Shown one piece after another: positions 6,152 to 64,000 of a stretch of 64,000 nt of DNA (position 1 is the stretch's first letter; every line of letters starts with the position of its first letter). The stretch is from Desulfosudaceae bacterium (GTDB lineage: Bacteria; Desulfobacterota; Desulfobacteria; Desulfobacterales; Desulfosudaceae): the NCBI GenBank assembly GCA_963674745.2, contig CAXXDV010000001.1:1504001-1568000 (forward strand), written 5' to 3'. The notes beneath the pieces are model-generated. The model had not been told where the DNA came from and did no database searches. It saw only the letters and a program-made list of their open reading frames with translations. The position numbers were made by a program, and so were the translations under genes.

Positions 6152-6169
6152 AAATTCTATTGGGTATAA

Positions 6170-6572
6170 CGTCTGCAGCCAAAGTAGCCAGGGCTTCCAG
6201 TGACTGACTTTAAGGTGGTTGATGTTCAATTTCCCCCGAATGTTCAAAAGCCGAATGCCCTGGCTATCATTTGGGCTGCTTGGTTAAGTGCCCGCATTAT
6301 TGAGAAAGACTTTAACGACAGCATGGGCAAATAAATTAAAATGATATTTTTCTTTTTACGCCTTGTCCATCATGAACTTATGAAAACGGGTAGGTCTCTT
6401 TTCATCCGGACAAATAAAGGCGCAAAATCAAACAGTCCCGCCAGATCAAAATACAGCTTATCTTTACTGATTGAAAATATCAATCTAGTGACAATTTCCA
6501 TAGTGGCAACGAAGATCATTTTTCGTCAAAATTCTTTTTTTATTTTTTCCCGTACAGATTAAGTGCACTTAA
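6170..6572 (-). mobile_element. ORF-less cassette, family A (copy 1 of 7)
   Basis: 403-bp unit with its own attC and no sense-strand ORF; hairpin core at 6359-6422. Confidence 0.9.
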
Positions 6573-6739
6573 CGTCGGCCGCCAATGGGAGCCAGGGCTT
6601 CCACTGACTTGCCTTAAAGGTGGTTACTGTTCAATTCCCCCCGGTTTTTCAAAACCCGAATGCCCTGGCTATCCTTTGCGCGGCTTGGTTATCTTTAAAA
6701 TATTATATTTTCGGGCAGCCGCTTCTGGAAGAATTTTCT

Positions 6740-7024
6740 CTAAAGTTCATATCGTTCATCACACTCATCATTTAACTCGGAATACCTTTTTCTGAGATTT
6801 TCCAAACGGCTTTCCAAATCAATTCTTTCGACACCTTTCAAAGGCGGATCTGAATTGAGCTTATCTTGAATGAGCTCCATTTCTTCATAGGTTGCCCGGG
6901 CTTTTTGGCAACTTTCTGGCTCTGGTAAACCAAAAATAATTTCCGTCATAAAACCACATGATGGAAGAGTCAGCAGAGAAATCATAACCAGGACTTTCAA
7001 TGCTTTTATCAAGTTGCCCCTCAT
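6740..7024 (-). CDS. Cassette: putative lipoprotein (copy 2)
   Basis: Identical protein to 1708-1992. Confidence 0.75.
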   Translation of the reverse strand: MRGNLIKALKVLVMISLLTLPSCGFMTEIIFGLPEPESCQKARATYEEMELIQDKLNSDPPLKGVERIDLESRLENLRKRYSELNDECDERYEL

Positions 7025-7158
7025 ATATGTTGAAAGATAACGCCCGCCACCACCGGCGAGCAGGGTTTGCGGACTTCTCTAAAGTGAGTTCAACTCCAAA
7101 TTACGCCACAACAAAAGCCGCGCGTCCCTGCGAGTCCGTGTGGGTGGCGTTGTTATCT

Positions 7159-7398
7159 CTAAATGTTATGCTTTTTTTTAACTTCTGAGATTCTATCCCA
7201 AACTGCTTTTGAAACTGAATCTTGGGATACTTGATCGAAAATGTTATTTAGTACCCGTTTTTCATCATCATCAATAATATTATCGGCCATTGCTAATCCA
7301 AGCAGATAATTGATTTCTCCAATATCCAGCGTACCATCATCAGTGAAACATTTAATAGAGTCGAGGGCAATTCTTAAATGACTTTCAAGTGGTGACAT
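7159..7398 (-). CDS. Cassette: small TerB-like protein (copy 1)
   Basis: DDGTLDIGE and AMADNIIDDDE motifs; purine-rich RBS-like tract before ATG 7398. Confidence 0.65.
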   Translation of the reverse strand: MSPLESHLRIALDSIKCFTDDGTLDIGEINYLLGLAMADNIIDDDEKRVLNNIFDQVSQDSVSKAVWDRISEVKKKHNI

Positions 7399-14380: not shown

Positions 14381-15164
14381 CGTCTGCAGCCAAAGTAGCC
14401 AGGGCTTTCTCCGACTGCCTTAAAGATGGTTAATGTTCGATTTTCCCCGAATTTTCGAACCCGAGTGCCCTGGCTATCATTTGGGCTGCTTGGTTGTGCG
14501 AAAATATATTTTATAGTGATTCACAAAAATTTGCAGGGCTTTTCGTTACAAAGTTTTGCAAAAAAGTACAGAAACCGTTTTTCATCTTTTCCGGATTGAC
14601 TGGCGAATTCAAAAAATCCAATTTCTGGCTGATCAGAAACGCATGATCTGATCGATGCCGGTGGTTCATTCGCAAAGATGAAAAATATATCTTTTTTCCC
14701 CTTTGTTTCAAATTCATCCTGCCAAAAATTATCGAGTAGCTCGATTTTCCAAAAAGCGTTTTATACGCACAACGTCTGCAGCCAAAGTAGCCAGGGCTTT
14801 CTCCGACTGCCTTAAAGATGGTTAATGTTCAATTTTCCCCGAATTTTCGAACCCGAGTGCCCTGGCTGTCATTTGGGCTGCTTGGTTGTGCGAAAATATA
14901 TTTTATAGTGATTCACAAAAATTTGCAGGGCTTTTCGTTACAAAGTTTTGCAAAAAAGTACAGAAACCGTTTTTCATCTTTTTCGGATTGACTGGCGAAT
15001 TCAAAAAATCCATTTTCCGGCTGATCAGAAACGCATGATCTGATCGATGCCGGTGGTTCATTCGCAAAGATGAAAAATAAATCTTTTTTCCCCTTTGTTT
15101 CAAATTCATCCTGCCAAAAATTATCGAGTAGCTCGATTTTCCAAAAAGCGTTTTATACGCACAA
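14381..15164 (-). mobile_element. Two tandem ORF-less family B cassettes (14381-14772, 14773-15164)
   Basis: Near-identical to 11033-11424 with a few substitutions. Confidence 0.88.
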
Positions 15165-15282
15165 CGCCCGCCACCACCGGCGAGCAGGGTTTGCGGACTT
15201 CTCTAAAGTGAGTTCAACTCCAAATTACGCCACAACAAAAGCCGCGCGTCCCTGCGAGTCCGTGTGGGTGGCGTTGTTATCT

Positions 15283-15522
15283 CTAAATGTTATGCTTTTT
15301 TTTAACTTCTGAGATTCTATCCCAAACTGCTTTTGAAACTGAATCTTGGGATACTTGATCGAAAATGTTATTTAGTACCCGTTTTTCATCATCATCAATA
15401 ATATTATCGGCCATTGCTAATCCAAGCAGATAATTGATTTCTCCAATATCCAGCGTACCATCATCAGTGAAACATTTAATAGAGTCGAGGGCAATTCTTA
15501 AATGACTTTCAAGTGGTGACAT
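15283..15522 (-). CDS. Cassette: small TerB-like protein (copy 2)
   Basis: Identical to 7159-7398. Confidence 0.65.
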   Translation of the reverse strand: MSPLESHLRIALDSIKCFTDDGTLDIGEINYLLGLAMADNIIDDDEKRVLNNIFDQVSQDSVSKAVWDRISEVKKKHNI

Positions 15523-16679: not shown

Positions 16680-16693
16680 GTTTGTAAGGCTAA

Positions 16694-17502
16694 CGTCTGC
16701 AGCCAAAGTAGCCAGGGCTTCCAGTGACTGACTTTAAGGTGGTTGATGTTCAATTTCCCCCGAATGTTCAAAAGCCGAATGCCCTGGCTATCATTTGGGC
16801 TGCTTGGTTAAGTGCCCGCATTATTCAGAAAGACTTAAACGACAGCATGGGCAAATAAAATAAAATGTTATTTTTCTTTTTACGCTTTGTCCATCATGTA
16901 CTTATGAAAACGGGTAGGTCTCTTTTCATCCGGACAAATAAAGGCGCATTATCACTTGGCCGCGCCAGTTCGAAATTACAATTTATCTTTACTGGACAAA
17001 AATATCAACTTGGTGACAATTACCATTTTGGCAACGAATGTCGATTTCAGCCCAAATTCTTTTTTTTATTTTTTTCCCGTACAGAATCAGTGCACTTAAC
17101 GTCTGCAGCCAAAGTAGCCAGGGCTTCCAGTGACTGACTTTAAGGTGGTTGATGTTCAATTTCCCCCGAATGTTCAAAAGCCGAATGCCCTGGCTATCAT
17201 TTGGGCTGCTTGGTTAAGTGCCCGCATTATTGAGAAAGACTTTAACGACAGCATGGGCAAATAAATTAAAATGATATTTTTCTTTTTACGCCTTGTCCAT
17301 CATGAACTTATGAAAACGGGTAGGTCTCTTTTCATCCGGACAAATAAAGGCGCAAAATCAAACAGTCCCGCCAGATCAAAATACAGCTTATCTTTACTGA
17401 TTGAAAATATCAATCTAGTGACAATTTCCATAGTGGCAACGAAGATCATTTTTCGTCAAAATTCTTTTTTTATTTTTTCCCGTACAGATTAAGTGCACTT
17501 AA
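16694..17502 (-). mobile_element. Two tandem ORF-less family A cassettes (variant 16694-17099; canonical 17100-17502)
   Basis: Share attC type and the invariant hairpin core with 6170-6572. Confidence 0.9.
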
Positions 17503-18726: not shown

Positions 18727-19923
18727 CGGCGGCAGCCAAAGTAGCCAGGGCTTTCTCCGACTGCCTTAAAGATGGTTAATGTTCAATTTCCCCCGAATTT
18801 TCGAACCCGAGTGCCCTGGCTGTCATTTGGGCTGCTTGGTTGTGCGAAAATATATTTTATAGTGATTCACAAAAATTTGCAGGGCTTTTCGTTACAAAGT
18901 TTTGCAAAAAAGTACAGAAACCGTTTTTCATCTTTTCCGGATTGACTGGCGAATTCAAAAAATCCATTTTCCGGCTGATCAGAAACGCATGATCCGATCG
19001 ATGCCGGTGGTTCATTCGCAAAGATGAAAATTATATCTTTTTCCCCTTTGTTTCAAATTCATCCTGCCAAAAATTATCGAGCAGCTCGATTTTCCAAAAA
19101 GTGTTTTATACGCACAACGGCGGCAGCCAAAGCAGCCAGGGCTTCCACTGCCTTTATTAAAGTTGTTTGCTGCTCAATTCCCCCGGCATGTTCAAAAACC
19201 GAATGCCCTGGCTGTCATTTGGGCTGCTTGGTTAAGTGCCCGCATTATTCAGAAAGCCTTTAACGACAGCATGGGCAAATCAATTAAAATGATTTTTTTC
19301 TTTTTACGCCTTGTCCATCATGAACTTATGAAAACGGGTAGGTCTCTTTTCATCCGGACAAATAAAGGCGCAAAATCAAACAGTCCCGCCAGATCAAAAT
19401 ACAGCTTATCTTTACTGATTGAAAATATCAATCTGGTGACAATTTCCATAGTGGCAACGAAGATCATTTTTCGTCAAAATTCTTTTTTTATTTTTTCCCG
19501 TACAGATTAAGTGCACTTAACGTCTGCAGCCAAAGTAGCCAGGGCTTCCAGTGACTGACTTTAAGGTGGTTGATGTTCAATTTCCCCCGAATGTTCAAAA
19601 GCCGAATGCCCTGGCTATCATTTGGGCTGCTTGGTTAAGTGCCCGCATTATTGAGAAAGACTTTAACGACAGCATGGGCAAATAAATTAAAATGATATTT
19701 TTCTTTTTACGCCTTGTCCATCATGAACTTATGAAAACGGGTAGGTCTCTTTTCATCCGGACAAATAAAGGCGCAAAATCAAACAGTCCCGCCAGATCAA
19801 AATACAGCTTATCTTTACTGATTGAAAATATCAATCTGGTGACAATTTCCATAGTGGCAACGAAGATCATTTTTCGTCAAAATTCTTTTTTTATTTTTTC
19901 CCGTACAGATTAAGTGCACTTAA
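18727..19923 (-). mobile_element. Three consecutive ORF-less cassettes: B (18727-19117), A (19118-19520), A (19521-19923)
   Basis: Direct sequence match to families A and B. Confidence 0.9.
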
Positions 19924-20038
19924 CGTCTTCAGCCAATGGGCGCCAGGGCCTTCTCTGACTGATTTAAAGTTGGTTAATATTCAATTCAGCACGGCTGTTC
20001 AAAACCCGAGTGCCCTGGCGGTCCTTTGCGCTGAATGG

Positions 20039-20443
20039 TTATCTTCTTTTTATTTTTTTATTATTTATCGCTTCCCAATTATCCCAGAATTCTTTTCTGT
20101 GTCTCTCATAATCTTCTTCTGTATTATGATAAAGGAACACTTCCTTTAGGTTTATAAAATCACTTTTTGTGAGAAAGTTTGGCAAGATTTTTCGAATATG
20201 TTCTTTTTCAAGCAGGTGTTCATAGAAATGAGTTAAAACAACTGTTCTGATCTCAGCATTGTCAGAATCCTCAAGACACCATTTCGCATAATCAAAAATT
20301 TCATTAAGGCTCTCAAAATCTTTATTCTCGATAAGCATATCCAATTCTATCCAAAGCATTCCAATAGAATCGATTTCATTAGATTGGATCAGTTCCCGTT
20401 GGGATGGAATTTTCTCCAATGCATTTTTTCGCCATTCGTTCAT
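20039..20443 (-). CDS. Cassette: hypothetical helical protein (tandem copy 1)
   Basis: Start corrected to MNEWRKNA; part of a 540-bp tandem duplication. Confidence 0.78.
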   Translation of the reverse strand: MNEWRKNALEKIPSQRELIQSNEIDSIGMLWIELDMLIENKDFESLNEIFDYAKWCLEDSDNAEIRTVVLTHFYEHLLEKEHIRKILPNFLTKSDFINLKEVFLYHNTEEDYERHRKEFWDNWEAINNKKIKRR

Positions 20444-20578
20444 TTTTTCTCGTTGGAAGATAACGTCTTCAGCCAATGGGCGCCAGGGCCTTCTCTGACT
20501 GATTTAAAGTTGGTTAATATTCAATTCAGCACGGCTGTTCAAAACCCGAGTGCCCTGGCGGTCCTTTGCGCTGAATGG

Positions 20579-20983
20579 TTATCTTCTTTTTATTTTTTTA
20601 TTATTTATCGCTTCCCAATTATCCCAGAATTCTTTTCTGTGTCTCTCATAATCTTCTTCTGTATTATGATAAAGGAACACTTCCTTTAGGTTTATAAAAT
20701 CACTTTTTGTGAGAAAGTTTGGCAAGATTTTTCGAATATGTTCTTTTTCAAGCAGGTGTTCATAGAAATGAGTTAAAACAACTGTTCTGATCTCAGCATT
20801 GTCAGAATCCTCAAGACACCATTTCGCATAATCAAAAATTTCATTAAGGCTCTCAAAATCTTTATTCTCGATAAGCATATCCAATTCTATCCAAAGCATT
20901 CCAATAGAATCGATTTCATTAGATTGGATCAGTTCCCGTTGGGATGGAATTTTCTCCAATGCATTTTTTCGCCATTCGTTCAT
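20579..20983 (-). CDS. Cassette: hypothetical helical protein (tandem copy 2)
   Basis: Identical to 20039-20443. Confidence 0.78.
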   Translation of the reverse strand: MNEWRKNALEKIPSQRELIQSNEIDSIGMLWIELDMLIENKDFESLNEIFDYAKWCLEDSDNAEIRTVVLTHFYEHLLEKEHIRKILPNFLTKSDFINLKEVFLYHNTEEDYERHRKEFWDNWEAINNKKIKRR

Positions 20984-21953: not shown

Positions 21954-22010
21954 ATTATGTGTCGGCCGAACGTCTGAAGCCAATGGCAGCCAGGGCTACC
22001 ACTGACTTGG

Positions 22011-22532
22011 TTAAAGATTTTGGTTGTTCCACTCCCCCGACTTTTCAAAACCCGAATGCCCTGGCTGTCCACTTGCGCTTCTTTGTTCTGCATCAATAAT
22101 ATAACTTTTGTGTTTAAGGAAGAAGTAAATACAAAAGAGAAGGCAAACACAAAACGTAATTAAAAAATCTTTCCATCCAGTAAATTCCCATGTGTATTTT
22201 GCAACTCCTGGTATTGTATAAATTGCTTCCCATACAATTATTGCCACATATAGAAAAAGACATACCAGTGAAGCCCAGTGTTTATTTCTAAAAAGTCCAA
22301 GTGCTCCAACAATTCCCACAAGCCCCCACAGTGAGAAAAAACCAGTAGAAAGGATCCATCGAATAGTCCAGTCTGTCTTATTGAATGCATCATCCATAAA
22401 TTCCGAGGGCATTGTACCCAAGCTATTTGCGAGGGAGTGTGAATTGATAAGGCAGGGTATGCCATAATACAACAAATATACTGAAAAGATCAGAATCAGA
22501 GTGGCAATGATGTTGTTAATCAATTTTTTCAT
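22011..22532 (-). CDS. Cassette: 4-TM protein reading into its attC (copy 1)
   Basis: Stop codon inside attC 21965-22091; identical to 23039-23560. Confidence 0.78.
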   Translation of the reverse strand: MKKLINNIIATLILIFSVYLLYYGIPCLINSHSLANSLGTMPSEFMDDAFNKTDWTIRWILSTGFFSLWGLVGIVGALGLFRNKHWASLVCLFLYVAIIVWEAIYTIPGVAKYTWEFTGWKDFLITFCVCLLFCIYFFLKHKSYIIDAEQRSASGQPGHSGFEKSGEWNNQNL

Positions 22533-22972: not shown

Positions 22973-23038
22973 TTATTCGAATATCCTGTCCTGCACAACG
23001 TCTGAAGCCAATGGCAGCCAGGGCTACCACTGACTTGG

Positions 23039-23560
23039 TTAAAGATTTTGGTTGTTCCACTCCCCCGACTTTTCAAAACCCGAATGCCCTGGCTGTCCAC
23101 TTGCGCTTCTTTGTTCTGCATCAATAATATAACTTTTGTGTTTAAGGAAGAAGTAAATACAAAAGAGAAGGCAAACACAAAACGTAATTAAAAAATCTTT
23201 CCATCCAGTAAATTCCCATGTGTATTTTGCAACTCCTGGTATTGTATAAATTGCTTCCCATACAATTATTGCCACATATAGAAAAAGACATACCAGTGAA
23301 GCCCAGTGTTTATTTCTAAAAAGTCCAAGTGCTCCAACAATTCCCACAAGCCCCCACAGTGAGAAAAAACCAGTAGAAAGGATCCATCGAATAGTCCAGT
23401 CTGTCTTATTGAATGCATCATCCATAAATTCCGAGGGCATTGTACCCAAGCTATTTGCGAGGGAGTGTGAATTGATAAGGCAGGGTATGCCATAATACAA
23501 CAAATATACTGAAAAGATCAGAATCAGAGTGGCAATGATGTTGTTAATCAATTTTTTCAT
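23039..23560 (-). CDS. Cassette: 4-TM protein reading into its attC (copy 2)
   Basis: Identical to 22011-22532. Confidence 0.78.
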   Translation of the reverse strand: MKKLINNIIATLILIFSVYLLYYGIPCLINSHSLANSLGTMPSEFMDDAFNKTDWTIRWILSTGFFSLWGLVGIVGALGLFRNKHWASLVCLFLYVAIIVWEAIYTIPGVAKYTWEFTGWKDFLITFCVCLLFCIYFFLKHKSYIIDAEQRSASGQPGHSGFEKSGEWNNQNL

Positions 23561-23689
23561 GCAGAACGTCCGCCACCACCGGCGAGCAGGGAATGGTGAC
23601 TATTGCAAAGCCACGTTAACACCAGACCACGAAATTTAAAAAGCAGCCCGCCCCTGCGAGTCCGTGTGAGTGGCGTTGTTAGCTCTTTT

Positions 23690-24055
23690 TTAAAATAATT
23701 TTATACTGTATCGGTCTACCAACATTAGAGCACCCAAAAGCGAAATCCCGCCAAATGTTAAATTATAAAGAAACGCCCAGCTAAAATAAACAAGGGCATC
23801 TCTTCTGCTTCGTTTGGTTGTGATATTTAAAACTTCTGCAACTAAAGTAATTGCGAGAACGATTACGAAAAGCAATGCGCCACTCAACAAGATTATTCCG
23901 AGCCACAAAAGAGCGGCTGGGAAACCTGATTTTATCCATGCGATGATGAACGCAATGCCAGAGATCCATCCCACCGATGCAAAACTCCAGATTGCCCCCA
24001 AAATCATTCCTTGATGCAAGCTGATTCTTCGTTCAATTTTCTCTGGAGTATCCAT
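23690..24055 (-). CDS. Cassette: 3-TM membrane protein
   Basis: Fills the cassette. Confidence 0.75.
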   Translation of the reverse strand: MDTPEKIERRISLHQGMILGAIWSFASVGWISGIAFIIAWIKSGFPAALLWLGIILLSGALLFVIVLAITLVAEVLNITTKRSRRDALVYFSWAFLYNLTFGGISLLGALMLVDRYSIKLF

Positions 24056-24181
24056 ATTGTAGAGCTAACGTCCGCCACCACCGGCGAGCAGGGCTTGCGG
24101 ACTTCGCTAAAGTAAAGTTCAACTCCAAATAACGCCAAAGCCAAAACAGCCCGCCCCTGCGAGTCTGTGTGAGTGGCGTTG

Positions 24182-24658
24182 TTATATTTTGCCTGTATTA
24201 ATTTTATCTATAGCACGATCAAATTTGACCACCAATTCATTTAAAGTATCAACTGGACTCTTAGTAAAGGCTTTATCAGTAGGGTATAATGGCGCTACCC
24301 ATTCGCATTCTTTGCAATTTTCGGCTATTGCAATCATTATGGTCAAAGACCCTTTCCAAGATTCAATTATTTCATGCGGGTCACAGTTTGGAAAAACTTG
24401 CATCAATTTTTCCATCATTTTCTTTGTTGGGCTTTGAAGCAAATTTATCACTTCAAGAGAATATTTAATCACATCTTTCGAGGCAGACGTCCTTGGCATT
24501 CCGACACAAATCGAAAAGCGCCAAAACCATTCCGCACATTCTTCTGAAATATCCGTGAAATATTCAGAATAGCTCAACAGGTCAAGTGAAGATGCATATT
24601 CGGGAAGAACGTGCATTTCAAATATGATTAATCTTGGATATTCTTTATATTGCCACAT
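24182..24658 (-). CDS. Cassette: hypothetical protein (copy 1)
   Basis: Identical to 26190-26666. Confidence 0.75.
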   Translation of the reverse strand: MWQYKEYPRLIIFEMHVLPEYASSLDLLSYSEYFTDISEECAEWFWRFSICVGMPRTSASKDVIKYSLEVINLLQSPTKKMMEKLMQVFPNCDPHEIIESWKGSLTIMIAIAENCKECEWVAPLYPTDKAFTKSPVDTLNELVVKFDRAIDKINTGKI

Positions 24659-24803
24659 ATCTTATAAAATATAACGGCGGCAGCCAAAAGCAGCCAGGGC
24701 TTCCACTGCCTTCCTTGAAGTTTTTTACTGTTCAATAATCCCCGGTTGTTCAAAAACGCCTTAGCCCTGGATGTCTTCTTGGGCTGCCTTGTTATAAATC
24801 TAA

Positions 24804-25247
24804 TTATATAATGAAAGGCAGGCAAGCAATTAATAAAAATAATAATATATTGAATGCGAGCACAAAATAAGCATATACAAGTTGCATCCTACCTATATAT
24901 TTATGCTCAGGTGCAATATATTGATTACCACAATTAGGGCAAACTACTAAAGATGGGTTTAATATATTTCCAAAGAATGAAAAAGATTTTTCATTTCTGG
25001 ACAATTTTTCGAAAAAGTTATTGATTGCAAATCTTACATTCGAAAATGTGAAATGTCTATTGTTAGATTTGAACTTAAATGGACCTAAATTTTTAAACGG
25101 ATAGTATCCATATTTTAAGTTCCTTGACACTCTAAATTTTCGATCACATTTTGGACATTTAGTAAATGTCATAAAAGATAAAATACCTAAAATAAATGAT
25201 AAAGAAACGGCGAATATCAAAAAAATCAGAATCAAAAAAGGATCCAT
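24804..25247 (-). CDS. Cassette: membrane protein with split zinc ribbon
   Basis: CPKC...CPNC flanked by TM helices. Confidence 0.72.
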   Translation of the reverse strand: MDPFLILIFLIFAVSLSFILGILSFMTFTKCPKCDRKFRVSRNLKYGYYPFKNLGPFKFKSNNRHFTFSNVRFAINNFFEKLSRNEKSFSFFGNILNPSLVVCPNCGNQYIAPEHKYIGRMQLVYAYFVLAFNILLFLLIACLPFII

Positions 25248-25269
25248 TTCTCATCTCTATGATTTATAA

Positions 25270-26076
25270 CGTCTGCAGCCAAAGTAGCCAGGGCTTCCAG
25301 TGACTGACTTTAAGGTGGTTGATGTTCAATTTCCCCCGAATGTTCAAAAGCCGAATGCCCTGGCTATCATTTGGGCTGCTTGGTTAAGTGCCCGCATTAT
25401 TGAGAAAGACTTTAACGACAGCATGGGCAAATAAATTAAAATGATATTTTTCTTTTTACGCCTTGTCCATCATGAACTTATGAAAACGGGTAGGTCTCTT
25501 TTCATCCGGACAAATAAAGGCGCAAAATCAAACAGTCCCGCCAGATCAAAATACAGCTTATCTTTACTGATTGAAAATATCAATCTGGTGACAATTTCCA
25601 TAGTGGCAACGAAGATCATTTTTCGTCAAAATTCTTTTTTTATTTTTTCCCGTACAGATTAAGTGCACTTAACGTCTGCAGCCAAAGTAGCCAGGGCTTC
25701 CAGTGACTGACTTTAAGGTGGTTGATGTTCAATTTCCCCCGAATGTTCAAAAGCCGAATGCCCTGGCTATCATTTGGGCTGCTTGGTTAAGTGCCCGCAT
25801 TATTCAGAAAGACTTAAACGACAGCATGGGCAAATAAAATAAAATGATATTTTTCTTTTTACGCCTTGTCCATCATGAACTTATGAAAACGGGTAGGTCT
25901 CTTTTCATCCGGACAAATAAAGGCGCATTATCATTTGGCCGCGCCAGTTCGAAATTACAATTTATCTTTACTGGACAAAAATATCAACTTGGTGACAATT
26001 ACCATTTTGGCAACGAATGTCGATTTCAGCCAAAACTCTTTTTTATTTGTTTCCCGTACAGATTCAGTGCACTTAA
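25270..26076 (-). mobile_element. Two tandem ORF-less family A cassettes (25270-25672 canonical; 25673-26076 mosaic variant)
   Basis: Direct match to family A. Confidence 0.9.
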
Positions 26077-26189
26077 CGTCCGCCACCACCGGCGAGCAGG
26101 GCTTGCGGACTTCGCTAAAGTAAAGTTCAACTCCAAATAACGCCAAAGCCAAAACAGCCCGCCCCTGCGAGTCTGTGTGAGTGGCGTTG

Positions 26190-26666
26190 TTATATTTTGC
26201 CTGTATTAATTTTATCTATAGCACGATCAAATTTGACCACCAATTCATTTAAAGTATCAACTGGACTCTTAGTAAAGGCTTTATCAGTAGGGTATAATGG
26301 CGCTACCCATTCGCATTCTTTGCAATTTTCGGCTATTGCAATCATTATGGTCAAAGACCCTTTCCAAGATTCAATTATTTCATGCGGGTCACAGTTTGGA
26401 AAAACTTGCATCAATTTTTCCATCATTTTCTTTGTTGGGCTTTGAAGCAAATTTATCACTTCAAGAGAATATTTAATCACATCTTTCGAGGCAGACGTCC
26501 TTGGCATTCCGACACAAATCGAAAAGCGCCAAAACCATTCCGCACATTCTTCTGAAATATCCGTGAAATATTCAGAATAGCTCAACAGGTCAAGTGAAGA
26601 TGCATATTCGGGAAGAACGTGCATTTCAAATATGATTAATCTTGGATATTCTTTATATTGCCACAT
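26190..26666 (-). CDS. Cassette: hypothetical protein (copy 2)
   Basis: Identical to 24182-24658. Confidence 0.75.
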   Translation of the reverse strand: MWQYKEYPRLIIFEMHVLPEYASSLDLLSYSEYFTDISEECAEWFWRFSICVGMPRTSASKDVIKYSLEVINLLQSPTKKMMEKLMQVFPNCDPHEIIESWKGSLTIMIAIAENCKECEWVAPLYPTDKAFTKSPVDTLNELVVKFDRAIDKINTGKI

Positions 26667-26813
26667 ATCTTATAAAATATAACGTCCGCCACCACCGGCG
26701 AGCAGGGTTTGCGGACTTCGCTAAAGTAAGGTTAACACCAACCTATGCCTAAACCCAAGGCCGACCGCCCCTGCGAGTCCGAGTGGGTGGCGTTGTTATG
26801 TCTTTATATTTTT

Positions 26814-27191
26814 TTATAAGTTCCAAACTTGACCTGTGAGAATTATTAGACCCATTGTGATGTACATTGATATCGGTGGCAATAAAATGAGCCCGATAAC
26901 GCCTTTTAAAATCCGTTTCTTTTCGCTCCAATATGTACAAAAAAATATGGACGGAAGTACTAAATGCCCCATGTGTAAAACGGCTGAACCTACTTGGGTT
27001 ATTTCATTTGATTTCTCCCAGCCCGCTGCTCCGACATAACAGAATATGGATATGGCAATGAAGCTTATAACAATTAAAACCGTTTGCCTTTTGAGTTTGT
27101 CTTTCAATGTATTCCATATCAAAAACTGTACGATTGATATTCCGTAAATCAATAGAAAGTCTATGGCAATTTTAGTTGTAGGATAGATCAT
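26814..27191 (-). CDS. Cassette: 4-TM membrane protein
   Basis: Fills the cassette. Confidence 0.75.
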   Translation of the reverse strand: MIYPTTKIAIDFLLIYGISIVQFLIWNTLKDKLKRQTVLIVISFIAISIFCYVGAAGWEKSNEITQVGSAVLHMGHLVLPSIFFCTYWSEKKRILKGVIGLILLPPISMYITMGLIILTGQVWNL

Positions 27192-27322
27192 TTATTTTGA
27201 GACATAACGTCTTCAGCCAAAGGGCGCCAGGGCTTCCTCCGACTGACTTAAAGAAGGTTTAAGTTCAATTCAGCACGGCTGTTCAAAACCCGAATGCCCT
27301 GGTGGTCCTTTGCGCTGAATGG

Positions 27323-27745
27323 TTAGTTTCCAACTTTTATTTCTTTTATAATTCTCTTTTTGGTTTCAATTAAATGTTTCTTCAAATTAATTGCCCACTC
27401 TTCTTTCTCGGGCTCTAATCTTTTGATGCTTTCATTCAAATGTTGGATTGCATCGCTAAACTCGAAATATCGAAAATCCTTTTTCTCCCTTTCACTGACC
27501 GGGAATAAAGACTTGATTTGCGATAGTGGCATATCGCGATAAACAACAACCTTAATATCATCTTTAGAATTTGGATCGCTACTGCCGTGGTTATTCCATT
27601 GCCACCATTCCATCCCAATTTTTTCGTAAACCATAGATTGTGGGCCAAAATCTTCATAATCGAAAACCCCGTATGGCTTCGTTGAATTCAGGCAGCTCGA
27701 AACACAAAAAAAGCAGAGTATCAAGAGTAGCGTATGAAATTTCAT
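27323..27745 (-). CDS. First cassette of the array: putative lipoprotein
   Basis: Signal peptide with VSSC; stop codon in the R'' box. Confidence 0.78.
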   Translation of the reverse strand: MKFHTLLLILCFFCVSSCLNSTKPYGVFDYEDFGPQSMVYEKIGMEWWQWNNHGSSDPNSKDDIKVVVYRDMPLSQIKSLFPVSEREKKDFRYFEFSDAIQHLNESIKRLEPEKEEWAINLKKHLIETKKRIIKEIKVGN

Positions 27746-27750
27746 AATGA

Positions 27751-27770
27751 AACTAACAATGTTATTAGAT
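27751..27770 (-). other. Putative attI site at the head of the array
   Basis: Minus strand reads TCTAATAACATTGTTAGTT. GTTAGTT matches the first cassette's R'' box but is not preceded by an attC hairpin. The AAC-NNN-GTT spacing is as in attI1. Confidence 0.75.
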
Positions 27771-27871
27771 AGAATTTCTCGATTACATCCCCCTTGAATA
27801 TAATTAGCTATAATTTTTATTAATTACAAGCGAATTGTGATTAGCGCTATTTTTGTATATAAATAATTAGA

Positions 27872-27884
27872 AATCAATAGTTTA
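27872..27884 (+). promoter_or_regulatory. IHF-consensus site upstream of attI
   Basis: AATCAATAGTTTA matches WATCAANNNNTTR exactly; the AT-rich context lowers specificity. Confidence 0.4.
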
Positions 27885-28141
27885 TGTAAAATATTGGTAA
27901 GCCTAAATGGTTTTGCGATTCTTGTTTTCGTGCCATATGGGCTTCTTAGTCGGAATTTCTCGATAAAATTGGTTTTACTTATCAATTTGTTTTCAGGATC
28001 AGGGTGGAACCATGGCTGAATTCGTCAACCATTTGTTTTTAATGTTAATAAATATTAGAAGTCAGGTTCGATATTATGGGGGCCGGATAGTGCCTTTTTT
28101 TCGTTAATCGGGCAGGGATACATTGAAAAGAGGGTGAATCG

Positions 28142-28798
28142 TCAAGGCGAGGCTTCGTGTTGAATCAAAAAGGCATAAGCCAAGAAGCGGCCGTCATGGC
28201 TCAGGCTGATGCTGATGCCGGATTCCTCGCCGTTGATATACACCACGGGAAACAGGCTGTGTTTTTCATGACCGGTGTTGGTGATGGTCACATCATTTTC
28301 TGATAATGACAGGGCTGAAGCGATCTTTCTTCGTGCCGATGCCCGCACCATGCGTGATTGGAATTTTGAGCTTCTGCAGAAATCCGGCTGTGGAAGATCA
28401 TTTATGGTCTCAATGCCGTAGCGGACGGTTTTGGCGGCCGGAGACGTTTGGGCACCAAAGCAGTGAATAAACGCCTGGTTTTGCAAGGCCCTGACATGGA
28501 CCAGGCCAAAAGGTGTTGTAACCCGTCCCCGGATATCTTTTCCGCTTTCCGGGGTATCGAGGCACACGTCGTATCGCCGGGGCGCCGAAGATACGGCCGG
28601 GCAGATTTTGGCGGTAATTTTGTAGGCGGTTTCCTTGGCCGCCCAGAACAACTGCAGCAGGCTGTCCTGTTTATGGGATTTCATGAGGACCTGATGCTCG
28701 CGGGGTGTTAAGACCCGCTGCACAAATTTCCGGTCGTCGCTTTTTCCTTTTACATAAGGAGAGGACATATCAACGATGTCATTGCCCACGTGCATCAA
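28142..28798 (-). CDS. 4'-phosphopantetheinyl transferase (ACPS superfamily)
   Basis: VGNDIVD, WAAKETAYK and ISLSHDG motifs. Confidence 0.9.
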   Translation of the reverse strand: MMHVGNDIVDMSSPYVKGKSDDRKFVQRVLTPREHQVLMKSHKQDSLLQLFWAAKETAYKITAKICPAVSSAPRRYDVCLDTPESGKDIRGRVTTPFGLVHVRALQNQAFIHCFGAQTSPAAKTVRYGIETINDLPQPDFCRSSKFQSRMVRASARRKIASALSLSENDVTITNTGHEKHSLFPVVYINGEESGISISLSHDGRFLAYAFLIQHEASP

Positions 28799-29519
28799 AA
28801 TACGTTTTTTCCATTTCAGCCAGTTTTTCGATGATTTGGCGGGAGTGCGCCCGATGCGCTTTCAGTCCTGACAGGTTGCGGTTTATCGCACACGTCTCTA
28901 CCGCAAATGAAAAAACGTCGTTGGGCACGGGGATATTGCTGTAGGATGCCTGGTGTTCCCCCCGCAGGTAGAGACACATGACCCGGCAGTCCGGGCGGCT
29001 GTCGACCAGCCGGCCCGGACCGTAGGAAAACGTTTCGGTGTTGATCCGGCCTGTCCGGGAACGGGTACCTTCCGGAAAAATCATAATGCTTTCGCCCTGT
29101 TCAAGAAGGTACCCGCATTTGGCAAAACAGGCCTTGATGGATTCCCGCTTGCCCCGGCGCACCACGGGGATGCATTTTAACACAAAGCACAGCAGGGTCA
29201 TGGCCGGGTTGCGCTGAAAATTCCGTTTTTCCGGAAGGTTCCAGGCCAGCAGGTGGTAATCGATCATATACCGCCAGACCGGGAACATGACATAGCTCAG
29301 GATAGCCGAATCGATCAAGGTCAGGTGATTGGCGCAGATGACCCAGGGGCCCTGGTGCGCATTAAAAAGGGCGGCGATCTTCTGTCTGTGTTTTTTCAGT
29401 TGGCTGACCCGGTAACCGGCCATCTTTATCAACAGAACCAGAATCGGCGCGGTCATAAAAATGGCGATTCGTCCTGAAAGATACTGAAGGTGCAGCAGAA
29501 AGAAGTCATGCCGTCTCAT
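28779..29519 (-). CDS. PlsC-like lysophospholipid acyltransferase
   Basis: NHLTLID (HX4D) and FPEGTRS motifs. Confidence 0.9.
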   Translation of the reverse strand: MRRHDFFLLHLQYLSGRIAIFMTAPILVLLIKMAGYRVSQLKKHRQKIAALFNAHQGPWVICANHLTLIDSAILSYVMFPVWRYMIDYHLLAWNLPEKRNFQRNPAMTLLCFVLKCIPVVRRGKRESIKACFAKCGYLLEQGESIMIFPEGTRSRTGRINTETFSYGPGRLVDSRPDCRVMCLYLRGEHQASYSNIPVPNDVFSFAVETCAINRNLSGLKAHRAHSRQIIEKLAEMEKTYFDARGQ

Positions 29520-29782
29520 GCCTGCGCTCCTGCCGGGGCGGTTTTCCGGAGAATAACCCGGACGGCGTCCCCGATGGTTTTGATGGCATCGGCGTCATCA
29601 TCATCGATTTCGATGTCAAAGCAGTCTTCCGCATTGATAATGATATCCACCAGGCGGGCCGAATTGACCTTGAGGTCCTTGATAATGTCTGTTTCCATAG
29701 ACGCTTGCGCCAGCGCGTTTTCGTCTGTAACAAATTCTTCGATAATACCGATCAGTTCATCGTAAATGGCTTGTTCGTTCAT
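29516..29782 (-). CDS. Acyl carrier protein
   Basis: Acidic 88-aa protein with DLKVNSARLVD serine motif; AGGAG RBS before 29782. Confidence 0.88.
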   Translation of the reverse strand: MNEQAIYDELIGIIEEFVTDENALAQASMETDIIKDLKVNSARLVDIIINAEDCFDIEIDDDDADAIKTIGDAVRVILRKTAPAGAQA

Positions 29783-31095
29783 TTTTGGTCTCCTTTGTGG
29801 TTGGTTTGGTAGTGTGATGCCTGTCCTTCCCATTTTTTTAGGATCAGGCAGCCGTTGACGTCTCCGAATCCGAAACTGGCCTTGGCCAGTACCTTTAAAT
29901 CCGGGCAGTCTTTGCGGGTTTGCACGATTTTATCCGAAAAAGGCATGATCTCCGGGTGAAGATCTTCGCAATTGATTGACGGGTGCAGAAACCCGTTGCG
30001 AAGCTGGATGACGGCCGCAACGGTTTCAATCGCGCCGGCGGCGCCCAGGCAGTGGCCGATCAGCGATTTGGTCGAGTTGATATACGGAAAGTCAGCAGGC
30101 CCCCGTTCCAGGGCGTTTGACCAGTTTTGAATTTCGTGGGGATCGGCAAAAGTGGCGGAAAGGTGCCCGTTGATGGCATCGATTTCATCGGGTGAGATGC
30201 CGGCATCAGAAATCGCCTGCCGGATGCAGCGCAGCACGCCGTCGGCATTGGGCGCCGTCATGGAACCGCCGCCCCTCTGCCCGCCGGAGTTGACATGACC
30301 GCCCAGAATCTCGGCGTAAATATCCGCGCCCCGCGCGCGAGCGGTTTCCAGTTCTTCTAAGACCAGGACACCGGCGCCCGAGCCCGGGACGAAACCGCAG
30401 GCGGAAGCGCTCATGGGCCGGGACCCGCGTTCCGGTGCGTCATTGTACTTTCTGGACAGTATCCGCATGGAATCAAATCCGCCCCATGTGTACGGTGACG
30501 GGGCTTCGGCGCCGCCCGCGACCATGCGCCTGGCCCGGCCGTCACGAATTCTGTACATGGCGTCGATAATGGCTTCAGAGCCGGTGTTGCAGGCGGATGA
30601 ATTCGAGGTTACCTGGTTTCCCAGCCCGAGTAATCCGCCGACCCTGGCGCTGATGCCGCTGCTCATCACCTGTTCGACCACCCGGCTGCCGATCCGGCGG
30701 ACCCGGCCCTCGTTGACCAGCGGAATGATCCGTTCGGCAATGGTGTCCATATCGCCGATGCCGCACCCCATGACCGCGCCCGTGTCCCAGTCGGTTTCGG
30801 TGTCGTTTTTGTCAACGGAAAATCCGGCGTTGGTCCAGGCCTCCAGCGCCGCCACCGAGGCGTACCCGATATTGTCGCTGGTGTCTTTTAGCTGTTTCTT
30901 CGGAATATGCTTTTCAAAAATCGTGTCAACGTCCCTGGGAATGCCCGCGATCCGGCAGCCGAAATTAAGATCGGCCAGCCGCGGCACAAACCGGATTCCC
31001 GAACGGCCGTTTGCCAGGGCATCTTCAAATTCGGTTGTATTATTGGCGTTGGGGCAGACAACGCCCATGCCGGTGATGACGACTCTGTGTTTCAT
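29779..31095 (-). CDS. fabF: Beta-ketoacyl-ACP synthase (FabF/FabB type)
   Basis: RVVITGMG; catalytic SSAC, NGH and KSLIGH; SFGFG. Confidence 0.9.
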   Translation of the reverse strand: MKHRVVITGMGVVCPNANNTTEFEDALANGRSGIRFVPRLADLNFGCRIAGIPRDVDTIFEKHIPKKQLKDTSDNIGYASVAALEAWTNAGFSVDKNDTETDWDTGAVMGCGIGDMDTIAERIIPLVNEGRVRRIGSRVVEQVMSSGISARVGGLLGLGNQVTSNSSACNTGSEAIIDAMYRIRDGRARRMVAGGAEAPSPYTWGGFDSMRILSRKYNDAPERGSRPMSASACGFVPGSGAGVLVLEELETARARGADIYAEILGGHVNSGGQRGGGSMTAPNADGVLRCIRQAISDAGISPDEIDAINGHLSATFADPHEIQNWSNALERGPADFPYINSTKSLIGHCLGAAGAIETVAAVIQLRNGFLHPSINCEDLHPEIMPFSDKIVQTRKDCPDLKVLAKASFGFGDVNGCLILKKWEGQASHYQTNHKGDQK

Positions 31096-62609: not shown

Positions 62610-62954
62610 TCAGCATGTCAGATGAAAGCACCCGGCCACACGCGCGCCCTGTTCATGTGCGGCATTGAATGTCTCGATCGCCCGGGCGGTCGGGACGATT
62701 TCCATCTCAATTCCCATGTTTCGCAATTCATCCTGCAGATCGGCCGCCGGTTTCATCCGGCCGGAATCACCCGTCCCCACAACCAGCAGGTCCGGCGCGG
62801 CGTCCACAACTGCCTGGATATCGGCCATGGTCAACCGGTGCCCGCTTTTCCGCCACCAGGGGTGAATGATCGATCCGTCCGGCAGGATGATGACGTCCTT
62901 GCCGTAATGCCGGTCGTCGATGGTTATGGATCCGAACGTGTAATTTTGAATCAC
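62610..62954 (-). CDS. Mth938-like (DUF498) protein
   Basis: FGSITID, LVVGTG and FHLTC motifs. Confidence 0.85.
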   Translation of the reverse strand: MIQNYTFGSITIDDRHYGKDVIILPDGSIIHPWWRKSGHRLTMADIQAVVDAAPDLLVVGTGDSGRMKPAADLQDELRNMGIEMEIVPTARAIETFNAAHEQGARVAGCFHLTC

Positions 62955-63493
62955 GCTGCTTCCCGTCTTAAAACAAAAAAGAACGGTTTACGCATTCCTT
63001 TAAAATCCATTACACCCAGCACCGTGTTTTCATCCACTTTCCGGAACACGTCGTTGATGGGCAGGTTGTCATAAATCATGGTTGCGCTCGACTTTCCACG
63101 GTAATCCGTCAGGCGCAGGCGGGCCCGTGAACGCCGGGTCACAAACAGGGGCATGATGAGCTGGAAGACGCGTCCGAAGAACCGGGAGTTGATAAACGGG
63201 AAAAATTTCAGCAGGCCGAGGCCCGGCATGACCAGTGTCGGGTTGAGGCTTTTTCTGCCCTTGCTCAAAGTTGAAAACACCAGGGGGTGAACATCCTCCG
63301 GGCCTTCAAACCGCTTGCCGTGCCAGTGAAAAGTCTCCAGCACGCCATCCATGGGATGGTCGGTAAGAAAACCCGACCCCTGCCAGGCGCCGAGCATAAA
63401 ATCGGTGTTGACGGGATCAAGGCTGTCGAAAATCGCCAGTGCTTCTTCGGTACTTGTCTTTCCGGCCTCAAGCGCGGTTGTAAACGAAATCAA
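62951..63493 (-). CDS. GXWXG / DUF4334 protein
   Basis: GAWQG, WHGKRF and MIYDNLPINDVFRKVD motifs. Confidence 0.85.
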   Translation of the reverse strand: MISFTTALEAGKTSTEEALAIFDSLDPVNTDFMLGAWQGSGFLTDHPMDGVLETFHWHGKRFEGPEDVHPLVFSTLSKGRKSLNPTLVMPGLGLLKFFPFINSRFFGRVFQLIMPLFVTRRSRARLRLTDYRGKSSATMIYDNLPINDVFRKVDENTVLGVMDFKGMRKPFFFVLRREAA

Positions 63494-63873
63494 ATTGTCT
63501 CTCCTGAGGTTGAATGTTTAACCAGTCGGTCATATACAAATTTTACAATTTCGGGATCCATGTCCCGGCTTTTTTCATAAAACAGGTTTGCAATTCTGTC
63601 TTTTTCAAAAATACCATCCGCCAGCAATATCGGAATACCTTTTGGGCTCAAAGTACCATCTTTTTCACCATCATCGACTTCATGATGATGATAACCGCTT
63701 TTTTCCCACCATGTCAGGGCATGGGGATTTTCCGGTTTATCATAACATAATTGAAAACCGATGATGCGGTCATTTTCGTCAAACCATACCGTCAGGTCAA
63801 TCTCATGATCAAAAAACCATCGCCGCTTCGGTTCGTTCTCGTAGCTTTTAACCTTTTCTATTTCGTATAGCAT
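63490..63873 (-). CDS. Hypothetical protein directly downstream of the second attI-like site
   Basis: 127 aa; more AT-rich than its neighbours. Confidence 0.75.
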   Translation of the reverse strand: MLYEIEKVKSYENEPKRRWFFDHEIDLTVWFDENDRIIGFQLCYDKPENPHALTWWEKSGYHHHEVDDGEKDGTLSPKGIPILLADGIFEKDRIANLFYEKSRDMDPEIVKFVYDRLVKHSTSGETI

Positions 63874-63902
63874 GGTTCATCCCTGAAAGCATTTAACTTG
63901 TT

Positions 63903-63988
63903 CGTTAACTATGTTATCAGACGGAATTCTACGGTGCACTCCCCATTCGTATGATTACCCATACCGTTCTTTAATTACAAGCGATTTG
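63903..63988 (-). other. Second attI-like module homologous to 27751-27837
   Basis: TAACTATGTTATCAGA...TTAATTACAAGCGATTTG versus TAACAATGTTATTAGA...TTAATTACAAGCGAATTG; 59/84 identities in my manual alignment. Confidence 0.65.
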
Positions 63989-64000
63989 CACCAAAATCAA

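Follow-up and report, generated by a model that had tools for sequence, protein, structure and literature searches.

The window, by which we mean the whole stretch of 64,000 nucleotides analysed here (C1:1504001-1568000 of a 5.55 Mb genome in 3 contigs, G000), falls into two parts of different composition. Positions 1-27330 have 36-43% GC and carry dense, short minus-strand genes with repeats of ~130 nt between them, and rightwards of 28000 the DNA has 47-62% GC and holds ordinary chromosomal genes. When the repeats were aligned on the gene strand, they had the anatomy of attC sites, with inverted repeats enclosed between an R'' box that ends in TAAC and an R' box that starts with GTTA. This left part (1-27330, minus strand) belongs to a cassette array, array B, that extends in full over C1:1480921-1531325 with 87 attC sites, all of them on the minus strand and co-oriented with the cassette genes. 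The stretch flagged in the earlier note lies at the exact border between array and chromosome, upstream of the first cassette gene (27323-27745, minus strand). This gene has 36% GC and encodes 140 aa with a signal-peptide-like N-terminus, but matched no Pfam family and had no second copy in the genome. The attC site of the first cassette occupies 27197-27330 (minus strand), and its R'' box GAAACTAAC (27330->27322) contains the stop codon of the gene.

On the chromosomal side, a 4'-phosphopantetheinyl transferase gene (28142-28798, minus strand; Pfam PF01648, E 1.6e-9) opens a fatty-acid/polyketide-type cluster in which an acyltransferase, a ketoacyl synthase, FabA and reductases follow. The transferase gene is a flanking core gene and lies outside the integron. 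The same cluster was present at 75% identity in the congener G002, with no array or module beside it and with the left flank of array B not adjacent there; the array was either inserted here or lost in that congener.

The DNA between the first cassette and the transferase gene was recognised by blastn, in which 27755-28111 had a homologue (81-85%) in the segment running from attI to intI in an intact integron located 585 kb away on the same contig. Further copies of the module were detected within the genome at C3:1820862-1821009 (88%), C1:2116859-2117000 (87%) and C1:906363-906437 (76%). The 87% copy lies directly upstream of an integron integrase gene (C1:2117116-2118447) with an open frame of 443 aa and no internal stops, which scored 415.7 bits against a TIGR02249 cut-off of 265 and matched PF00589 and PF13495, with two SAM-like N-terminal stretches. 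As this copy adjoins a genuine, intact IntI, the module is the attI side of a real integron. The 443-aa protein also carries a repeated C-terminal tail.

The array head was resolved into its parts. At the junction with attI, the R' half-site of the first cassette, GTTAGTTTC, occupies 27749-27757 on the minus strand, as read from the sequence and from the attC alignment. The attI core follows at 27755-27839; these 85 bp begin with the inverted repeat TAACA/TGTTA, end at TTAATTACAAGCGAATTG, hold four ATTA(G/C) motifs and were recognisable by profile alignment in 10 copies from three genomes. The core is identical at 82 of 85 positions to that beside the intact IntI at C1:2117116, and the first attC site of the array is 430 nt from the attI crossover. 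Next comes a remnant of 172 bp (27840-28011) of the region between attI and intI, including the ribosome-binding region of intI. The last element is a 5' stub of intI itself (28012-28107, plus strand), translated as 31 codons followed by TAA, which aligned by tblastn to residues 1-36 of the 443-aa IntI with 44% identity over 36 residues; it had no Pfam match, as expected for 31 aa. The blastn end points place the breakpoint at 28111-28141, where the homology to the intact integron ends and beyond which lies the 3' end of the core transferase gene, so positioned that unrelated chromosomal DNA would have replaced the remainder of the integrase gene. None of the 31 TIGR02249 matches of the genome lies at the window locus, which lacks the adjacent integrase gene of a complete integron.

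These junctions could in principle have been created during assembly, by mis-joining of repeated attI and attC sequences to the transferase region, and the near-identical 85-bp cores of heads B, D and H, together with the repeat-rich nature of the arrays, are what such an artefact would exploit. Nevertheless, among public contigs aligned to 23000-31000, a short-read contig from run X1 spans 27809-31000 with 0 differences, across the junction of stub and core gene, and a second contig covers 27225-27783, across the junction of cassette and attI, although X1 may be the source sample and hence not independent. Moreover, the stub sequence is unique, with 62-69% identity to the other copies, which makes a mis-join very improbable.

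A candidate Pc promoter directed towards the cassettes was located within the attI core at 27800-27829 (minus strand), formed by TTGTAA, a 17-nt spacer and TAATTAT, with a predicted start near 27793. A similar promoter-like element, TTGTAA-17 nt-TAATCAT, is present at 63951-63980 (minus strand) in the second copy of the module described below. The pattern TTGTAA-N17-TAATYAT was thus found on the minus strand at both places, as had been proposed, and nowhere else in the window; no match appeared in any of 100 shuffled sequences, a result that is not independent, as the pattern was derived from these same two sites. Both hexamers and the 17-nt spacing were kept in 10/10 aligned copies, and the sequence of the spacer varied. 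A generic sigma-70 scan omits the element because it agrees with the consensus at 8/12 positions, against a threshold of 9/12.

An IHF-type site had been proposed at 27872. A match to the IHF-type consensus WATCAANNNNTTR is present at 27872-27884, and the copies most alike (heads B, D and H) all three retain it, but by itself it does not stand above chance, since the window contains 4 matches against 4.5 expected. The head also contains an exact 12-nt direct repeat, GAATTTCTCGAT, with one unit inside the attI core (27772-27783) and the other just upstream of the intI ribosome-binding region (27953-27964). In a diverged lineage, represented by head A and by a copy from genome G001, both positions read GC(T/C)TGAT, so that they partly co-vary; judged from sequence, this repeat could be a shared protein-binding site.

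The second copy at 63907-63996

The earlier note had aligned the array head by hand to a second site in the window and had counted 59/84 identities. This count was exact: an alignment of 27751-27840 with 63902-63992 gave 59 identical columns over 27754-27837, including an exact block of 14 nt, TTAATTACAAGCGA. Both copies are on the same strand, and each lies just upstream of a minus-strand AT-rich gene, the first cassette gene at 27323-27745 with 36% GC and a gene at 63490-63873 with 40% GC, against 53-59% GC in neighbouring genes.

Taken pairwise, the similarity between 27754-27837 and 63906-63988 could be thought a chance likeness of two AT-rich promoter regions, as the identity is only 70% and genome-wide blastn gave E 0.009 with the window copy as query (0.002 with the intI-linked copy). 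An nhmmer profile was built from 9 other copies, 4 of this genome and 5 from two congeners, leaving the second site out. The profile recovered it with E 1.2e-9 (40.1 bits), as the only non-seed match below E 0.01 among the 14 matches listed at E<=10. In addition, this site shares the AAC start of the other copies in both the profile and the pairwise alignment, is oriented as they are, and lies in front of a gene of 40% GC in surroundings of 54-59% GC. A chance likeness is therefore vanishingly improbable and the second site, hereafter site 2, is a real homologue of the window head, as its recovery by a profile that excluded it demonstrates. Weak partial matches to the promoter half only of the attI profile were also found away from arrays, at C3:2703782-2703830, C1:1181833-1181893 and C3:1560021-1560065 (E 0.013-0.084).

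The claim that site 2 is a capture platform had to be abandoned. It heads no array: in the surrounding 30 kb no attC match was better than E 0.58 by nhmmer with all filters off, and none was found within 36 kb. On the integrase side no trace of intI was detected in 2.5 kb, and there is no room for the gene, because a 727-aa gene ends 118 nt to the right. The 127-aa gene behind site 2 (63490-63873, minus strand) had no Pfam family and no paralogue in the genome, and its TGA overlaps the TTG start of a core DUF4334/GXWXG gene (62951-63493). In the congener G002 the orthologue of this DUF4334 gene begins at the corresponding position but has another gene upstream of it and lacks the AT-rich unit of ~510 bp. 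The 92 nt that follow the 127-aa gene were considered as an attC remnant, a possibility that was rejected because they match the sequence coding for the N-terminus of this orthologue in G002.

Site 2 is thus an older, isolated and diverged relic of the same attI type, composed of an attI core, a candidate promoter and one AT-rich gene. It is the last remnant of an integron head that became fused before core genes, rather than a platform at the head of an array, and now probably serves only as a promoter, for the 127-aa gene and for the core genes whose translation is coupled to that of this gene. Class 1/2 resistance cassettes offer a partial parallel, as there too an attI-derived fragment is found on a single gene away from any integrase; those cassettes, however, have a second recombination site and demonstrated excision, whereas site 2 has neither a second site nor a sign of mobility.

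Integron heads across the genome

Among the 31 tyrosine-recombinase matches of the genome, three intact integron integrases exceeded the TIGR02249 cut-off of 265, so the single integrase supposed in the earlier note gave way to three, each with its own attI type. Two of the three (C1:2117116-2118447 and C3:27899-29209) have 420-443 aa and an N-terminal extension of ~95 residues, absent from the third, that resembles an additional SAM-like domain (two PF13495 stretches; PF02899 at 2-56).

The attC sites were surveyed with an nhmmer profile of those of the window, iterated twice, which yielded 150, then 212 and then 237 sites. These 237 sites form nine arrays and a few singletons, array B being the largest with its 87 sites over 50 kb. 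When the DNA that separates each intact intI from the first cassette of its array was used as query, 12 attI-type heads of three attI types were found, 3 with an intact intI and 9 orphan. The attI type of the window comprises the intact head D and the orphans A, B (the window head), H and site 2. The second type comprises the intact head F and two orphans, head C and a relic at C1:942898, and the third comprises the intact head I and three orphans: G, which retains a broken intI fragment with stops, E, and a small head at C1:958607. The proposed existence of several copies uncoupled from the integrase was consequently borne out by heads A, B, H and site 2, to which the other attI types add five orphans. 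The note had asked whether such copies head arrays and adjoin intI. In 10/12 heads an attC site lies 280-901 nt away on the expected side and strand, an intact intI is present in 3/12, and the exceptions that have no attC within 36 kb are the relic at C1:942898-943034 and the very site 2 that the note had named.

Two of the attI copies have notable surroundings. At C1:941912-943034, the stranded attI relic adjoins on its cassette side a gene pair that, from the translations, is PIN-domain-like and ribbon-helix-helix-like. At C1:1736837-1737080, a small array contains the attI region of the C3 integron in a copy of 96% identity, flanked left and right by co-oriented attC sites and lacking any remnant of an integrase; this looks like two abutting arrays or an attI carried within an array.

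Outside this genome the module has a narrow distribution. At E<=0.01 it was detected in 5/41 genomes searched, this one included, with strong matches elsewhere in two congeners only, in 0/10 genomes from other genera of the same family, and as short matches of 23-48 nt in two genomes from other families. A search of genome contigs with the intact IntI found only distant integrases, whose best segments did not exceed 55% identity. The congener G002 (99% complete) has 3 intI genes over the cut-off and 4 strong copies of the module, one of which adjoins intI. No intI stub was detectable beside the other three (best E 0.16), one of which is 400 nt from an attC site and two of which are at contig ends.

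The existence of several copies without intI, and the fact that three copies in congeners stop almost exactly where intI begins, a few bases away at most, might be taken to mean that attI and promoter were propagated as a module independently of intI, in a purpose-built distributed integron with one integrase. In such a case, the orphans of this genome would not be expected to keep the full intergenic region together with intI stubs of 24, 31-36 and 95 codons, nor would there be three integrases with three attI types; furthermore, the alignments show neither terminal repeats nor a transposase at the edges of the module. This explanation is accordingly quite improbable. The stub lengths vary from one head to another (31 codons in the window, aligning to 36 residues; 24 in head H; 95 in head A), and these three different end points argue for independent deletions. 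As the orphans carry the full intergenic region plus 5' stubs of differing ends, their uncoupling from the integrase is the result of decay.

The segments of the head have not diverged at the same pace. Among the paralogues B, D and H the attI core is 94-96% identical, the intergenic region 80-84% and the intI stub region 62-69%, compared to 78%, 66% and 68%, respectively, between the intact orthologues of G000 and G002. Between the orphans B and H, the core is identical at 81/85 positions and the rest at 189/244 (Fisher p 1e-4). The stub diverged faster than the intergenic DNA only in the comparisons that involve orphans, which suggests that the attI core remained constrained over a substantial period in which the stubs were already drifting as pseudogenes, although this timing depends on assumed rate ratios and on short segments. 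Alternatively, the gradient could have built up before the truncations, in complete copies, or promoter function alone could account for it.

Recombination point and shared cassettes

In all copies the homology starts at an AAC (plus strand; 27755-27757 in the window), which is GTT on the gene strand, and the cassette side of this AAC is unrelated between all 10 copies aligned. The crossover G|TT lies between 27757 and 27756. The R' of the first cassette (27757->27749) is an exact reverse complement (9/9) of its own R'' (27330->27322), as expected from an attI x attC insertion of a circular cassette opened at G|TT.

Several cassettes were found to be common to different arrays, at 98.5-100% identity, far above the identity between the heads. 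One of them, of 403-406 bp, is present 7 times in the window beside attC sites (repeat families D2 and D18), at 6168-6570, 16692-17097, 17098-17500, 19116-19518, 19519-19921, 25268-25670 and 25671-26073. The attI of the orphan head A and the different attI of the intact integron F on C3 are both followed, from the same base onwards, by this 403-bp cassette, and no array B copy of it lies next to an attI. As the first cassette of head A, it has 99.3-99.8% full-length identity (1-3 differences) to six of the array B copies. Likewise, the cassette of rank 73 in array B and the first cassette of the intact integron I agree at 100% over 532 bp. On the array strand the 403-406-bp cassette has no evident gene; the only ORFs that it contains (73-98 aa) are on the opposite strand and belong to no Pfam family.

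Exact duplications were also observed within array B, where 24066-24365 is 100% identical to 26074-26373, 21969-22268 to 22997-23296, 19921-20220 to 20461-20760, 7039-7338 to 15163-15462, and 1535-1834 to 6567-6866. The duplicated cassettes include a 158-aa gene, at 24182-24658 and 26190-26666. These identical duplicates point to recent reshuffling in an array that has no integrase of its own.

The orphan heads may be dead relics, conserved through recent duplication or through use of the promoter, from whose arrays cassettes leave by attC x attC excision and into whose attI none enter. In line with this, array B opens with a cassette that occurs nowhere else in the genome, hence there is no sign of a recent insertion at the window attI; 2/12 heads are without any attC; and the promoter-like hexamers contained in the conserved 85 bp could explain the constraint on it. 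However, the most conserved part reaches beyond the hexamers to include the crossover-proximal 45 bp downstream of the -10 element, and the almost unaltered first cassette of head A sits beside an attI that is only 76% identical to those of other heads and a stub only 45% identical in protein. Copying of this cassette by homologous recombination would need matching flanks, which are absent at head A, so that site-specific insertion at the orphan attI is the simpler reading. On balance, we regard it as rather unlikely that the orphan heads are dead. The capture of a cassette at an orphan attI after the loss of intI would nonetheless be supported only indirectly, by the first cassette of head A and by the conservation of the attI core, and the insertion at head A may predate the loss of its intI; for the orphan platforms as a group the chances that they still capture cassettes appear roughly even.

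Origin and possible use of the orphan head

Taken together, these data agree with the earlier note in identifying the flagged stretch as an attI that contains a candidate promoter and stands where the cassette array begins. With high confidence, we interpret 27755-28107 as what is left of a sedentary chromosomal integron at its head after deletion of the integrase gene, and the array as a CALIN that retains its attI. An ancestral genome would have held at least 12 integron heads of three attI types, nine of which would have lost their integrase. At the window locus, the retained promoter would transcribe the first cassettes, and the attI core may stay a substrate for the integrase of the intact paralogue acting in trans. 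An orphan array of this kind would both donate cassettes and still be able to receive them.

The notion of a distributed integron, put forward in the earlier note, therefore survives in a modified form. Platforms are indeed numerous and integrases few, but what these platforms represent is complete integrons that have lost their integrase genes, the product of decay and not of design. That the surviving integrases use the orphan heads in trans is plausible but unproven. A truly distributed integron would go further: the three integrases would serve twelve docking sites in trans, selection would keep attI and promoter while purging surplus, costly integrases, and the orphan arrays would capture and donate cassettes. 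We hold this possibility tentatively, as somewhat less probable than its negation.

Among known systems, the large sedentary chromosomal integrons of Vibrio have an attIA, a Pc promoter and uniform attC sites of the VCR type, with a functional intIA beside attIA and one integron per genome. Array B resembles them in its very large size, its homogeneous, species-specific attC family, its repeated cassettes and the promoter at the platform end. In contrast, the Vibrio platform keeps its functional intIA, and the window head has no intact intI.

Clusters of attC sites lacking an integron-integrase were named CALINs by Cury et al. (2016, PMC4889954), and array B falls in this class, with many attC sites and no integrase gene nearby. 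That paper proposes that CALINs may originate by loss of intI from one of the several integrons of a genome, and that their cassettes may be excised by an integrase encoded elsewhere (PMC4889954). Pseudogenes of intI were found there near only 15/279 CALINs, in a search that required >50% coverage of a C-terminal or PF00589 profile, and a search for attI was described as impossible outside classes 1-3, the sequence being unknown for most integrons (PMC4889954). A search of that design is blind to N-terminal stubs. Compared to the CALINs as presented there, the window array differs in keeping a recognisable attI, the promoter region and a 5' intI stub, and in having a cognate intact paralogue in the same genome.

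Chromosomal integrons of Xanthomonas, in the account of the work of Gillings and colleagues given in PMC12444791, have an intI disabled by frameshifts, stops or large deletions, while the attI region and the array persist. As here, these are sedentary integrons with a decayed intI and a retained attI region, but that account concerns one ancestral locus downstream of ilvD (PMC12444791). In this genome the 12 heads are scattered over unrelated loci and fall into three attI types, and a single type can be represented by intact and decayed copies side by side. Word searches of the open-access literature returned no description of a conserved attI at the heads of integrase-less arrays, or of insertion there, which does not imply absence from print.

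Integrase-less cassette arrays are common in bacteria, and their origin and activity are mostly unexplained. The window locus illustrates one clear route to a CALIN, in which the integrase gene was lost save for its 5' stub and the docking site and candidate promoter survived, more conserved than their surroundings. Standard pipelines would miss both the attI and the stub, because they seek C-terminal integrase remnants and because attI is known only for classes 1-3. With three integrases, three attI types and nine orphan heads, this genome is a natural test bed for insertion at orphan attI sites and for the specificity of each integrase for its own attI. If the genome does work as a truly distributed integron, many CALINs elsewhere would be live platforms with an unrecognised attI, and not debris.
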